Source of the DNA: a virus
Lineage: Duplodnaviria > Heunggongvirae > Uroviricota > Caudoviricetes
DNA: 33,207 nucleotides
Strand: one strand, 5' to 3'
IMG/VR virus record: IMGVR_UViG_2617270945_000015
Position numbers: made by a program. Shown piece after piece: positions 12,001-18,000 of the stretch. Each line of letters begins with the position of its first letter. The stretch's first letter is position 1.

Positions 12001-15000
12001 ATCTTTTGGGCCGTTTCGAGCCTCCCGGCACCACATCTTGTGGTGGCATTTCTCGAAAAAAGCCAAAGGAGGTCATCATGACCACTCAACTCATCCCTGT
12101 GTTTGAAGGTACAATCTCAAATGAACCTACGCTTCTGGTGAACGCGCGTGATTTGCATGGATTTTTAGAGGTAGGTAAAGATTTTTCTAACTGGATACGG
12201 GCCAGGCTAAACGAGTATGGATTCGTAGAAAATTTAGACTACATTCTATTTTCGCCAAATTTGGCGAAAACTCCAGGCCGCCGCCGCAAGGATTACCACC
12301 TCACCCTCGACACAGCCAAAGAGCTTGCGATGGTTGAACGTAACGAAAAAGGCCGCCAGATACGCCGCTACTTCATCGAGTGCGAAAAGAAACTTCGCAA
12401 CATTCAGCCAGTACAAACTGAGCAGCAATTCACAACCGAGGAAATCATCCTCCTCTGCTACATGCAACTCTGGATGGAAAAAGCACAACAACTCAGTAAG
12501 CAGCTATACCCCGTCATGAGAGAACTGAATTCTGATTACTACGGGAAACTGTTTGATCTGGCCTACGAGACTCGTCATATAACCAACCGGACTCGCGACA
12601 CATTGCTCCGCGAAGCAGCAAAACTTGATCCCGCCAACTATATGGTGCATAGGGCCAGAAGTATGCTGGCGCAACTAAGAGCAAGACAATTTGAATTCTG
12701 AAACCAAAGGAGCTTCGGCTCCTTTTTTCATGCCTGAAGGAAAGGAAAATGGCAGATATCATCGACAATGCCGCTGAAATCGAAGAATTGCAGCGCAATC
12801 TCTCCCTGCAAAAATACAAATCCGATAGTAATGCCCCATCTGCTACTCATTGTTGCGAGTGTGGCGATCCGATAGATGAGCGGCGACGCCAGGCTGTTCG
12901 CGGATGCCGAACTTGCGCCAGTTGCCAGCAGGATATTGAACTTATCAACAAACAGAGAGGTGTGAAGTGAGCATAGACACCACTATAACGATCGATACGA
13001 CCCTCAACACAGGTCTGGCGCTTCTTGGTTATTTTTACATTATGTTCTGCGCCGGGCGGTGGCTATCGCTGTTGTTACTGAAAAAATGGAATAAATGCCG
13101 TAAGCAGGATCAACGCCAGAAGGCAATGAATGCGTTTTCCGAAGCCTTCGGGATTGACAGCATGGAGCCAGGAGGTCCAGCTCACGTAATTAGCAGAGGT
13201 GACGTTGTAATTCTTGTATACCGGAGCGAAGAGAAAAATGAGCGAGATTAACTATCAGGTACTGCGTGAAAAGGCAGAAAAAGCAACGCGTGGTGAGTGG
13301 TCGCTCGAATATGGAGAGAACCGATTTGATGGTGATGATGCACTAATTCATCGCGAGGCTGCTGGATATATTCCCATTTGCAGAATTGAAGGAGCACATC
13401 CTGAAAGCGGTTTCGATGAAGATTTCCAAATGGAACAGCAGGCCAATGCTGAATTCATCGCCGCAGCCAATCCGGCTACCGTGCTGGCACTGCTGAATGA
13501 ACGGGAAAGAAACCAGCAATACATCAAACGCCGCGACCAGGAGAACGAGGAAATTGCTCTTACGGTTGGGAAGCTGCGTGTTGAGCTTGAGGAAGTAAAA
13601 CAACACGCTGAAGAATTATCCGAAACCAAGGCTGTTCGTAACCAATGGCGGCCAGATATTTGCCCAATAACCGGACGTACATTTTTCATGTGGATTGAGC
13701 ATCCAACATTGGGAAATGTGCCGACATATGGTGGCCCATTAGATAGTTACACCATTCCAACAAAGGACGGTGACGGTGAGTTTTCATGTGAGCGTTACGA
13801 TCATGATTTTGGCGGTTGGGTAGAAAGCGAATGTCTTGGGTTATATCTGATTGATGATAGAGAACAATGCAGGGTCTACGAACTGGAGGAACGCGTTAAA
13901 GAGCTGGAAACGCGGGAAGTTCATTTGCCGACTCGCTACGGCCTTCGATATGGACATCCGATAAATGATGATGAGCGCCACGTCATGATACCTAAAGAAA
14001 ATGGCAGTTGGCTTTACCTGATTGACCTAGAACACGCATTACGCGTCGCTGGCATTCGCATCAAAGGAGAGTGATATGGCATTAACACACCGCGAACTCT
14101 GTCAGATTGCGTACAAGTTCCTTAAGCGCAACGGGTTCAAGGTTTGTTTTCATGACCGCTTTATAGCTGTAACCAGTACCGGAGAACAGCCAGATGCTAT
14201 GGGATTCAGAAATTCAGCATCATGCCTGATAGAGGCGAAGTGTTCTCGTGCTGACTTGTTAGCAGATAGAAAAAAGCGTTTTCGTAAAAATCCGTCTCTT
14301 GGAATGGGCGACTGGCGATTCTTTATTAGTGAGCCGGGAATTATTTCAATTGAGGATTTACCACCTGGCTGGGGGTTACTTCACGTTGTTAACGGAAGAG
14401 TACGGAAAGTACATGGGTGGCCCAAGGGTAATTGCTGTTGGGGTAATCCTGACGATAAGCCATTTACTGGAAATAAGCAGGTTGAATGCGATTACATGTT
14501 ATCTGCATTAAGGCGCATGGAGTTGAGAGGGCACCTTAATGAAATATATGACGGTGTAATTGTTAATAAGAAAGAAGGAAACGCGGCATGATCACTATTA
14601 CCAAAGAGCGACTACTGACAATCAAGCAGTGGCGCGAAACATACGGACCTGGTAGCAACGTTGTACTGCCAGCAGAAGAAGCGGAAGAACTGGCACGAAT
14701 TGCTCTGGCAGCGCTGGAAGCCGAGCCGATAGGTTTCCGTTGCAGGCGCAATGATAACCTTGGTGATTGGAGTTACGTATATCATCGAGAGCCAGATGAT
14801 TTTGAGCGCAAACATTTAGTGATAGAGGGCATTTACGCCGCCCCTCCAGCACCAGTAGTACCGGAAGAAAAACCAATGCCTAATCCTCTTAGCATGTACG
14901 CGGTTGATGCTGTTGCCGCTATTGCAGAGGTGAGAGGCTGGAACGCCTGCCGTGCCGCTATGCTTCAGTCCGGAAACTTTCGGGAAAACAAGAATTCGTC

Positions 15001-18000
15001 AACCAATAATTTTCGGGAAATCGCGGAAACGTCAACCAACTATCCGGTAATTCCTAGTGAGGTGTTGTCCGCAATCCTGAAGGTTGCCAAGATTCGTGCC
15101 GATTTCGATGATTTTGACGGTGACAGGCGAGGTATCGGTGATTGTCTGGATGAGGCTGAGCAAGAGCTTATCGTTACCATTAACAAATATGCCAGTCAGT
15201 TGGCAGCAGAACCGATAGCGACTAATGACGTTCGAGAGCAAACAGCCGTTCCGCCAGTTCCGGTAACTCCGGATGGTTGGATAAGCTGTAGTGATCGAAT
15301 GCCAGAAATGGGAGAGCGACAATACTATGTGTTAGCAGCTGACTTTAAAAACAACTACCCACCAAGCATCCCCAACACTCAGGTCGGCGTATATGGCGAC
15401 TGGTTTAATGATGGCAATCCCACTTGGGATGACGGTGATGGCGAAGACCTGCATCTCAAAGAAGTAACCCACTGGATGCCGCTACCAGAACCGCCGAAGG
15501 AGGTACGCCAATGACCTAGCCTGAAGCATTTGCAATTGTAGTGGCTGCCATTTTGATCGCACTGATTGTTTTTGCGATTTGCCGCTGGGGGTAAAATAGT
15601 TCACCTGCATGGAGATTTGATGCCGGGGAATTGTGGGGGAGCATTCAAACCTCTCCCCTTCCCGGTTAAAGACTCCATTGCTTTGCGGTCAGAGAGATAC
15701 ATCAGCTTCATCAGCTTCATCAGCTTCATCAGCTTCATCAGCTTCATCAGCTTCATCAGCTTCATCAGCTTAATGAAACGCATAGATCCGCCATGCTTTT
15801 TCAGCAAATACGCTGCCATTTGCGCAACTTTTTCTTCATTAAACATAAATCGGCTCTCTGTCTCACATGAAACACTCTTTCTGACTATATGTTAATAGCT
15901 CCGGTTATTACAGGTTAATGTGTGTTTATTTCTTAATCAGCCCCGCACTTCCGTACGGGGCCATTTCTGTTAATCCACTCCCACTTTTTTGTTGTACTCG
16001 CGGTTAAACCGATCCACGGCAACCTTCATATCCCGCTCTACCGATTTCACCATCGCCGCCTGCTGCGCCAGACTGAGAGAACTGTCGGCATAAATGGCAT
16101 CGCGCTGTTTGCGCAAATCCTTCAGTCTCTTCCGGGTATCCTGCATAAGCCCGTTCATCAACAATTTTCCGTTGTTCTCGTCAATGAACGCCGTTCTTTC
16201 TGCACCGGTCAGACTCTTCAGCTCTGCGTGATACTGCGCAACCTCTGTCATCCGGTCGTACATCTTCTGCTGGTCTGCATACGGCATCACCTCACCCGAA
16301 ATTTTCCCCAGGAAGGGCACCTGCTGTTCCGGTATATCAATACCATTCAGCGATTTCACCGCCGCATCCGTGGTTTTGGAAATGAAGCGCCCTGTCCCTC
16401 CGGAGATATAGTCAATCCAGAATTTCAGCGATTCCGGTGTGATATCCACCGCGCCGGGACGATACTGGCTGCCACCTGAGAACGCATTCAGCCAGGATGC
16501 AAACGCCTTGTACGCTTCTGGCGTTGAACGTCTTCCCAGCTGGCTGTCAGGTTTTGGTGTACCAAACGGCATGTTCTCCTGGTAAATCTGCGCCCCCATG
16601 AAGTTTTCATTCATGGCAAGGTTCGCAAACGGACGCAGAATGGTCGGTGCTGCGTTTTTCAGCAATGCCCCCGACAACGTTTCCGACGTCTCGCTGCCGA
16701 TCGGGCTGAATGCTCCCAGGATACCGCCGACAACATTACCGGCAGCACGTGAAGCAGTCAGGTCGCCCGCTGCCACACCTTCAGCTGTATGACCAAGCAG
16801 GAAGAACACGTTGTACCCGTAAGGCAGAGGAATACTCCAGTACTCACCGGCCTTGCCCCCGAACATCGATTTCATGATGACGAGGTTACGCTCTTTCACA
16901 TGAGACGGTACTTTGTCGTACCAGTTACCCCCGTCATCATCCTCCCCCGCCACACTGCGGTTAAGCGAGCCAAGCAGATAACCCGCTCCCACAGCTGCAA
17001 GCACGATTTTCTGCGGTACATTGAGATTCTTCCAGCGAAGGCGCTCCAGTAACGGCCCGTCGCCATTAAGATGTCCGAGCGTTCTCACCAGGTTTGCGGT
17101 CCCCTGAATGCTGGCGTTGGCAAACATGTACAGCGAGTTCATCAGCATCCCCTGCTCACCACGACGGTTAAAGTTCACCGTCATGTTTTTGGCAAGAGAC
17201 GCCGCCTGCTGGCGTGACAAACCGGCATCACGGGCGTGTTTATAGGCAGAAAGACGCAGAGCGTTTTCAACCGCGCCGTTGGCATCCTCGACCAGGTTCA
17301 GGAACGAATGCCATGCACCGATACTCTGGCCTTTCCATCCGCCCTTCGCCAGCGACACAAGGCGATCCATTTCCTTCTGCTGGCCCTCAAGGTCACCCAT
17401 GTTAAACCAGCCGGTTTTACCTCCGTCCTCAACAAACTCTTTCCACACTTTCTGCCACTGTGCGCCTTTGCCCGTGAGGGTTTTACCCCGCAGACTTGCG
17501 TATACGGCTGACATGGCGGAACGGCTGTCTTTCACCACAGCCAGCGCGGATAAGTTATCCAGCCCTTTCAGTTTGCCGTCGCTTCTTCCCTGCTCAGCCT
17601 TCAGGTTCATCACCGCAGTCTGCACGTCACGGATGAAGTTACTGACCAGAAATTCCGGGTTATACGACGTGTTCACCGTTGCCAGGAAGCGGTTAACTTT
17701 CCCCAGCGTACGGATTACGGCGTTACTGGTTTCCGGCCCCATGTTCTTCATCGCACGCATCAGGCGCGGATCATGAAGTTTAATGTAGTAAGTTTTGCCG
17801 TCCTTTTTGGTGGTGAAGTAGCGATCCGCCATCATTGCCATCGGCACAGGGCGCTCGACAACTTCGCGAATGGTTTCACCAGTTTCCTGGTCCTTGCGCT
17901 CTGCAATCACACGCATTGTATCCGGTCTGTCATCAGTGAATACCTGCCAGTAATCCTTGTCGGGATTATCCTGTACCAGTTTCAGGAAGGCGTTACCCAC

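Follow-up and report, generated by a model that had tools for sequence, protein, structure and literature searches.

The closest described relatives of the gene considered here come from two families. The MmcB-like family (Pfam PF06319/DUF1052) includes the solved protein SPO1766 (PDB 3DNX) and MmcB itself, an SOS gene product of the Caulobacter chromosome that confers protection against mitomycin C and is known from genetics only (review PMC9578287); Hjc (PF01870; PDB 1HH1 and 1GEF) is the Holliday-junction resolvase of archaea. Here, we compare with these proteins the product of open reading frame 2 (ORF2) in the IMG/VR virus record IMGVR_UViG_2617270945_000015, a stretch of 33,207 nucleotides (hereafter, the window) that passes from host chromosome into a Shiga toxin (Stx)-type prophage. 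ORF2 (+ strand, ATG at 14076 to TGA at 14589-14591; 171 amino acids, aa) stands between ORF1, which encodes an Ea22-like protein, and ORF3, which encodes a protein with a DUF551 domain. Both flanking types are described as modular: in Ea22 proteins, interchangeable C-terminal domains are attached to an N-terminal segment and coiled coil that the proteins have in common, and DUF551 occurs as a portable domain at the C terminus of phage early proteins (PMC10834534). What is new at this locus is the family of the middle protein, which is unnamed and very common, whereas its fold and kind of nuclease, MmcB/Hjc-like, are already known.

A sequence-only reading of this stretch had recognized in the 171-aa protein a PD-(D/E)xK motif with nuclease-fold spacing, and the two points on which that assignment hangs, the presence of a nuclease core and the conservation of the motif residues, both came out in its favor. 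The translation carries P39-D40 and E53-A54-K55, and in an alignment of 116 cluster representatives 33-63% identical to ORF2, D40 and E53 are each kept in 115, K55 in 113, and an acidic residue (D/E) at position 27 in 115. The codons of the predicted catalytic residues lie on the + strand at 14154-14156 (D27), 14193-14195 (D40), 14232-14234 (E53) and 14238-14240 (K55). Conservation in the same alignment extends to E37 (114/116), D60 (116/116), D64 (113/116), K67 (112/116) and R70 (114/116). The AlphaFold2 (AF2) model, built with 34 homologues (predicted local distance difference test, pLDDT, 82.5; predicted template modeling score, pTM, 0.77), orders the core as a1-b1-b2-b3-a2-b4, with a helix at residues 5-18, strands at 22-25, 41-45 and 48-54, a helix at 58-64 and a strand at 80-85; D40 sits where beta2 begins, and E53 and K55 lie on beta3. 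As modeled, this is the canonical alpha-beta-beta-beta-alpha-beta core of PD-(D/E)xK enzymes, with the defining D on beta2, (D/E)xK on beta3 and an acidic residue upstream, so that ORF2 very probably encodes a small DNA-cutting enzyme of known fold. The segment CCWGNPDD (aa 120-127), which had also been noted, fared differently: Cys is present at position 120 in only 12 of the 116 relatives, the CC pair falls in a variable, indel-rich loop where neither Cys is conserved, and we rejected a role as a functional motif on that ground. Identity as a Cas4/RecB-like Fe-S nuclease was likewise rejected, a conserved four-cysteine set being absent. Some distant members of the family possess extra domains: a 428-aa protein (P0143) joins an N-terminal TniB/AAA_22-like ATPase (Pfam TniB, E 3.2e-6) to the nuclease, and others have N-terminal extensions of ~130-140 aa (L071, 3081-4019; L079, 3084-3995), architectures that could hint at partners or regulation.

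The placement of the family emerged only from its diverged members. A word-indexed search with ORF2 retrieved 324 close relatives, every one labeled 'hypothetical', and phmmer, run exhaustively over 1.84 billion cluster representatives (clusters at 50% identity), yielded 2614 relatives at E <= 1e-3, of which 1389 were at E <= 1e-10. ORF2 had no match in NCBIfam, and a single-sequence search of the PDB gave nothing significant. A profile of close homologues reached 3DNX in the PDB at E 0.44 only, whereas a profile of 43 diverged relatives reached it, by sequence alone, at E 9.5e-5; only with diverged relatives is the relation significant. The alignment with 3DNX displays an extended signature, ExKxSRxDFxxD, common to both. 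With the same 43-relative profile, the PDB chains of Hjc appear at E about 0.5-0.9. When the 43 relatives were compared singly with Pfam, 22 gave weak matches to Hjc (best 1.3e-4) and 13 weak matches to the MmcB-like family (best 2.9e-4). Comparison of ORF2 with PHROGs returned families of unknown function and a weak match to a 'DNA repair protein', and its viral structural neighbors in BFVD are annotated as MmcB-like DNA repair proteins. ORF2 reaches neither the Pfam gathering threshold for PF06319 nor the threshold for PF01870 and, because the model match fails, stands formally outside PF06319; in both sequence and structure, it is similar to the solved MmcB-like member 3DNX. In our view, the ORF2 family and the MmcB-like family are sisters in one superfamily, the former not described before, and Hjc is a more distant relative.

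Set side by side with these relatives, ORF2 shares with the MmcB-like proteins the acidic...D...ExK set together with ExKxSRxDFxxD, and a similar length (about 150-170 aa) that includes the C-terminal helices. Unlike them, the ORF2 family adds the invariant motifs GMGDWRF, GWGLL, NKQxE and RR, and it resides on phages and plasmids in early or entry regions, whereas mmcB is a chromosomal SOS gene (PMC9578287). As in the case of Hjc, ORF2 would be, judging from its sequence, a small stand-alone PD-(D/E)xK enzyme; the PD...(12 residues)...ExK spacing of the two families aligns residue for residue, and relatives of ORF2, too, are found among recombination genes. What sets ORF2 apart from Hjc is an extra beta-hairpin, a helical extension at the C terminus and the fact that its relatives share prophages with NinG/Rap.

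The abundance of this gene contrasts with its annotation, which is 'hypothetical' only, with no Pfam or NCBIfam model for the protein. At >=95% nucleotide identity (that is, at least 95%), the gene occurs in 928 of the 5426 complete Escherichia coli genomes (17%), in up to six copies per genome. It is also present in 641 phage records, many Stx-converting phages among them, and in 864 plasmids; P1/P7-like phage-plasmids carry it as well. A literature search found no paper naming or testing the protein, and the leading-region papers, the paper modeling the exo-xis region and the paper on the early-conjugation transcriptome do not mention it. The interest of this nuclease lies in its prevalence and placement, not in any strangeness. 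With the assignment to the MmcB/Hjc branch, a gene that is very common in Stx phages and IncF plasmids acquires an activity that can be tested.

Phage relatives of ORF2 recur among genes for DNA metabolism. A Morganella prophage copy (62% identity) lies between NinB and NinF/NinG; copies in Klebsiella prophages (76%) follow O/P, with a variable coiled-coil gene upstream and either DUF551 or a dATP/dGTP pyrophosphohydrolase downstream; among lytic phages, Vibrio Mardecavirus has the gene between those for a helicase and the primase, and in Ackermannviridae it is found just upstream of the primase gene. We also took a census of the immediate neighbors in 75 IMG/VR viral loci whose nucleases are 36-74% identical. 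The majority of these neighbors are small proteins without a recognized family; the recognizable ones, beyond those resembling the neighbors in the window, include helicases (ResIII, SNF2, DEAD), NinB, NinE, NinG, SSB, DnaB and methylases.

Taken together, the homology to MmcB and Hjc, the replication-module and nin-region contexts and the recurrent helicase neighbors suggest that ORF2 is a Mg2+-dependent endonuclease acting on DNA structure in the early replication, recombination or establishment of its element, a reading to which we assign a probability of roughly 55%. In the mechanism that we envisage, the Mg2+ ion would be held by D27, D40 and E53, with K55 activating water; the enzyme would recognize its substrates, namely, branched, stalled-fork or damaged intermediates, by their structure and not by sequence, and would work early, while the element establishes itself or replicates. 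We infer structure-directed, early cutting because the protein has no extra DNA-recognition domain and because its relatives lie in regions of replication, recombination and DNA entry. Several points weigh against this reading. ORF2 alone has no match in Pfam even at E <= 1; its activity and substrate are deduced from relatives, of which even MmcB is known by genetics alone (PMC9578287); prophages with the nuclease also carry NinG/Rap and NinB and, because NinG/Rap coexists with it, the nuclease is not simply the phage junction resolvase; rare fusions of the nuclease to Ead N-termini and a conserved upstream junction, both described below, may point to some functional connection with scaffolds of the Ea22 type; and a place beside the SOS inhibitors PsiB and PsiA in plasmid leading regions fits an anti-defence or establishment role equally well. 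The replication-module and nin contexts, for their part, point to DNA replication, recombination or repair at least as strongly as to anti-defence.

The plasmid copies are those on which a host-takeover or anti-defence role chiefly leans. In IncF plasmids, a 67%-identical copy begins at the psiA stop codon, giving the leading-region order ssb, DUF905, parB-like, psiB, psiA, nuclease, hok. In a second IncF plasmid, pSCU-152-1, a 39%-identical variant occurs just downstream of psiB, where psiA is expected; no psiA is listed near it in the PLSDB gene table, which is itself incomplete there. In Acinetobacter and Bordetella plasmids, the gene adjoins, and is divergent from, lytic transglycosylase and tra genes. 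The loci of these plasmid homologues, which are next to transfer or leading-region genes, are L024 (6977-7495), L106 (5001-5378), L107 (5004-5483) and L108 (~5001-5345). Plasmid leading regions are enriched for anti-defence genes (PMC11541004), and the 67% and 39% homologues lie within the ssb/parB-like/psiB/psiA block of IncF plasmids, which recalls the leading-region anti-defence islands (Samuel et al., Nature 2024), a likeness of genomic context only, the copy in the window being in a prophage. Given also that phage copies lie within repressor-controlled early operons, ORF2 might instead be among the first proteins made on DNA entry and shield the incomer by destroying a nucleic acid or structure of the host defence, or else DNA of the host or of a competitor. 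We regard this reading, the main rival, as possible but unlikely: known anti-defence families yielded no match and there is no evident target, the nuclease family is also a fixed component of the replication modules of lytic phages, the contiguous psiA-nuclease arrangement is present in only 205 of 4571 psiA-bearing plasmids (about 4.5%), the F plasmid itself lacks the gene, and the main text of the Nature 2024 study makes no mention of the nuclease. Because it recurs in early or entry positions, the gene is a reasonable one to consider in current searches for functions in establishment and anti-defence.

A broader and rather speculative proposal, which we hold doubtful as well, is that the family represents a large class of 'establishment nucleases' expressed first on cell entry by temperate and lytic phages, P1/P7 phage-plasmids and conjugative plasmids alike. 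Such an enzyme would cut a specific DNA structure that would otherwise block or betray the incomer, and candidate targets include host-defence nucleic acid, SOS-linked intermediates bound by RecA or SSB, and stalled complementary-strand synthesis. If true, this would be a new anti-defence or DNA-entry function and not that of a housekeeping resolvase.

The sequence-only reading had, in addition, treated the Ea22-like gene, the nuclease gene and the DUF551 gene as a functional trio, which could be envisaged as a three-component system, such as a scaffold combined with an effector and with a subunit for targeting or regulation. In favor of such a system, the block that runs from the C-terminal part of ORF1 through the nuclease to ORF3 stays intact at ~98% nucleotide identity across very different backbones, namely, at the right end of POCJ13-type phages (the right arm of Sepvirinae), in the pL operon of Ss-VASD, another of the Sepvirinae, where it lies between a PAPS reductase gene and ant/dam/xis/int, and in the phage-plasmid P7, where it forms upf88.3, upf89.0 and upf89.5 of the C1-operator-controlled 'hea' operon. 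The genes overlap or abut at their junctions; in the Klebsiella prophages (76%), the nuclease gene is often still preceded by a coiled-coil gene and followed by a DUF551 gene; and rare fusions link the nuclease to the Ead N-terminus or to an ORF3-like or DUF551 part. The census, however, does not bear out the trio: Ead_Ea22 is the upstream neighbor in 3 of the 75 loci and DUF551 in 2, DUF551 is the downstream neighbor in 3, a single upstream neighbor resembles ORF1 in a phmmer comparison, and ORF3-like segments are patchy and occur on either side of the nuclease, hence sometimes upstream instead of downstream. The synteny with Ea22 and DUF551 is lost once nuclease identity drops below about 75%, and both partners are absent from the plasmid, nin-region and lytic-phage copies. 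Moreover, because 4-nt overlaps flank the nuclease gene in many of the loci regardless of the identity of the neighbor, overlap is a property of such operons and no sign of partnership, and tight gene packing in lambdoid accessory regions should be taken as no evidence of a multi-gene system. The direct fusions of the Ead N-terminus to the nuclease, from Salmonella (P0091, P0093 and P0104), are the best remaining argument for a functional link, but they are few, and the majority of all the fusions are single-contig recombinants. We consider a three-component system improbable; the Ea22-like and DUF551 genes appear, from their distribution, to be modular mosaic neighbors that travel with this nuclease allele by linkage and are not obligate partners of an enzyme that, as proposed above, would act on DNA structure by itself.

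The tight chain of genes in the window is also longer than three. The coordinates that had been given for the open reading frames within 13238-15514, and for both junctions between them, are exact when checked against the sequence, and the junctions overlap or abut as described: TGA-T-ATG between ORF1 and ORF2 (14072-14078) and an ATGA overlap between ORF2 and ORF3 (14588-14591). The chain of overlapping or abutting genes, however, begins two genes earlier. It consists of five genes, the first of which encodes a 73-aa TraR/DksA-type zinc-finger protein like lambda orf73 (12749-12970, +; Pfam zf-dskA_traR, E 1.2e-8), named TraR/DksA family transcriptional regulator in RefSeq, and the second a 94-aa DUF4752 protein (12967-13251, +; Pfam DUF4752, E 2.4e-38); a GTGA overlap (12967-12970) joins these two, and a 14-nt overlap (13238-13251) joins DUF4752 to ORF1. 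Translational coupling along the chain is plausible given this geometry and the Shine-Dalgarno sequences. The + strand cassette converges on a minus-strand gene for a 2784-aa LPD5 protein. The region is, in short, the distal part of a packed, early-type cassette of five genes at the very end of a Stx-type prophage.

Comparison with other genomes suggests when this cassette would be expressed. In POCJ13, int is at the opposite end of the linear record and on the same strand as the cassette; therefore, in the circular genome, the cassette is immediately downstream of int across attP. The 'ea' genes of the lambda b-region are read from pL through att, and the cassette can be regarded, by analogy, as the counterpart of the accessory genes of the lambda exo-xis and b-regions. 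In Ss-VASD, the same genes are upstream of xis and int, and in P7, they are behind the C1 operator, so that what the three sites have in common is an early, repressor-controlled operon; expression of the cassette would be early. Within the window, candidate sigma-70 promoters, both weak, occur at 11306 and 11806. A scan of 11000-16100 for promoters and terminators found no more sites than in shuffled sequence and no terminator after ORF3, and because the matches are at chance level, the transcription units given here are inferred ones. The integrated copy in the window, cut off from pL, would depend on the weak candidate promoters at 11306 and 11806. This uncoupling from pL, together with those promoters and the position at the prophage end, is the argument for a moron gene whose product would attack superinfecting DNA, as a prophage defence, exclusion or toxin nuclease. 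Such a role is very improbable: no PADLOC model is matched at E <= 1 by ORF1, ORF2 or ORF3, the nuclease possesses no sensor or partner domain, the promoter matches do not rise above chance, and the family is found in the replication modules of lytic phages and the leading regions of plasmids.

The nuclease gene seems to bring its own upstream junction with it. The AAGGAG Shine-Dalgarno sequence of ORF2 (14064-14069, +) lies inside the last K-G-E codons of ORF1. Ea22 proteins are described as ending in a '+GE' tripeptide, the significance of which was reported as unknown (PMC7093339); the K-G-E end of ORF1 is encoded by AAA GGA GAG, and it is within these codons that the Shine-Dalgarno sequence of the following nuclease gene is found. 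The same junction (window 14050-14078; L001 ~3058-3090; L002 ~6570-6602; L005 ~5975-6007; L006 ~3977-4009) ends four unrelated upstream genes, those of POCJ13, Ss-VASD, P7 and a Klebsiella phage, and the tail that it encodes, AGI(R/K)(I/V)(K/E)(G/A)E, terminates unrelated upstream proteins in those four and in about 14 IMG/VR loci. Thus, as far as these sequences tell, the nuclease cassette seems to carry a ~25-nt 5' junction that becomes the tail of any upstream gene. This junction with its ribosome-binding site, the patchy, multi-slot distribution, the up to 6 copies per E. coli genome and the homing endonuclease that adjoins the gene in one Ackermannviridae phage speak for a selfish, homing-type or degenerate element, either a mobile endonuclease cassette standing on its own or a DNA binder with no catalytic activity, that spreads by recombination and is of no service to the phage. 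It is nevertheless the least probable of the explanations, given that the protein has no sequence-recognition domain, that the gene holds a stable place in the replication modules of whole phage groups, and that, over 2614 clusters, catalytic and DNA-facing residues hardly vary, which argues for selection for enzymatic function.

The upstream partner in the window, ORF1 (278 aa; + strand, ATG at 13238 to TGA at 14072-14074), deserves its Ea22-like label, matching Pfam Ead_Ea22 (PF13935) with 97.8 bits, above the cut-off of 27, over aa 2-130 only. Residues 2-130 form the Ea22 module of N-terminal segment and coiled coil, after which come a portable C-terminal domain and the tail AGIRIKGE. As in lambda Ea22 and P22 Ead, the N-terminal segment and coiled coil are present, and the terminal K-G-E tripeptide is that described for Ea22 proteins (PMC7093339); unlike in lambda Ea22, the C-terminal domain is unrelated to the class of the solved lambda Ea22 C-terminal domain and is a separate portable one. 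Its conserved core spans ~aa 135-225, and the domain recurs elsewhere alone as a 146-aa protein, fused to DUF4406, or fused to Ea22 N-termini. The AF2 model of this domain (25 homologues) is a low-confidence all-beta structure (pLDDT 61, pTM 0.35) that we judged unusable. This domain of ~90 aa (window 13640-13912) is strongly conserved and has no known family (NQWRPDICPITGRxFFMWIEH...GEFSCERYDHDxGGW...YLIDD); C12, H25, C54 and H59, in domain numbering, are invariant and might be metal ligands. The surroundings of ORF1 resemble the lambda exo-xis region in that a TraR/orf73-like gene precedes it (PMC9239242) and other small early genes come after it, but differ in that the cassette of the window prophage is on the opposite side of attP from exo and xis. 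Thus, ORF1 is not located between exo and xis in the pL operon but at the prophage end beside ynfF, whereas the Ea22-like gene of Ss-VASD does have the exo-xis placement and that of POCJ13 lies across attP from int.

The downstream partner, ORF3 (308 aa; + strand, ATG at 14588 to 15514), was also labeled correctly: its aa 230-304 (nt 15275-15499), and these only, match Pfam DUF551 (PF04448) over the full model length with 71.3 bits against a cut-off of 22. ORF3 therefore ends in a full-length DUF551 domain like other DUF551 proteins, for example, YfdS of the cryptic prophage CPS-53, but differs from them in a 229-aa N-terminal part that falls outside the Pfam families and is pieced together from segments also found in other phage proteins. 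Along ORF3, the PHROG segments are 660/5117 in the N-terminal part, 14306 in the middle and 924 at the C terminus. At 14975-15039, an imperfect tandem duplication of 33 nt (78% identity) encodes two 11-aa repeats, NFRENKNSSTN and NFREIAETSTN, which look like part of a linker between mosaic segments.

The prophage itself is of the Stx type, a short-tailed lambdoid phage of the Sepvirinae, with the Shigella phages POCJ13 and 75/02 Stx as the closest records. Host chromosome, with rspBA and ynfA-F, extends up to ~11014 in the window, and prophage lies beyond; the host genes rspB, rspA, ynfA, ynfB, speG, ynfC, ynfD, ynfE and ynfF occupy 931-11300, the first third of the window. The insertion is directly after ynfF, beside ynfEF, and the next gene, for a 4Fe-4S protein, is truncated; this is probably ynfG. 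Near the host/prophage junction, at 11181-11220, there is a long hairpin or direct-repeat structure. The prophage-end region continues on the + strand with two genes for AntA-family antirepressors, one at 11418-11828 and the other an open reading frame ending at 12701, ahead of the TraR-like gene.

Two further features of the prophage were noted outside the cassette. A perfect 9-bp tandem repeat, CATCAGCTT x 8, occupies 15700-15771 of the window, inside a minus-strand open reading frame (15601-15846, 81 aa), where it encodes (MKL)n; the RefSeq homologue is a 'Panacea domain-containing protein', the open reading frame in the window has no Pfam match, and the repeat may mark a contingency or slippage locus or else a gene in decay. 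Finally, a gene for a Hok/Gef family toxin is annotated among the structural genes of the same prophage in a near-identical RefSeq genome (L003, 28241-28381), with its equivalent in the window at ~27540-27680 on the minus strand.

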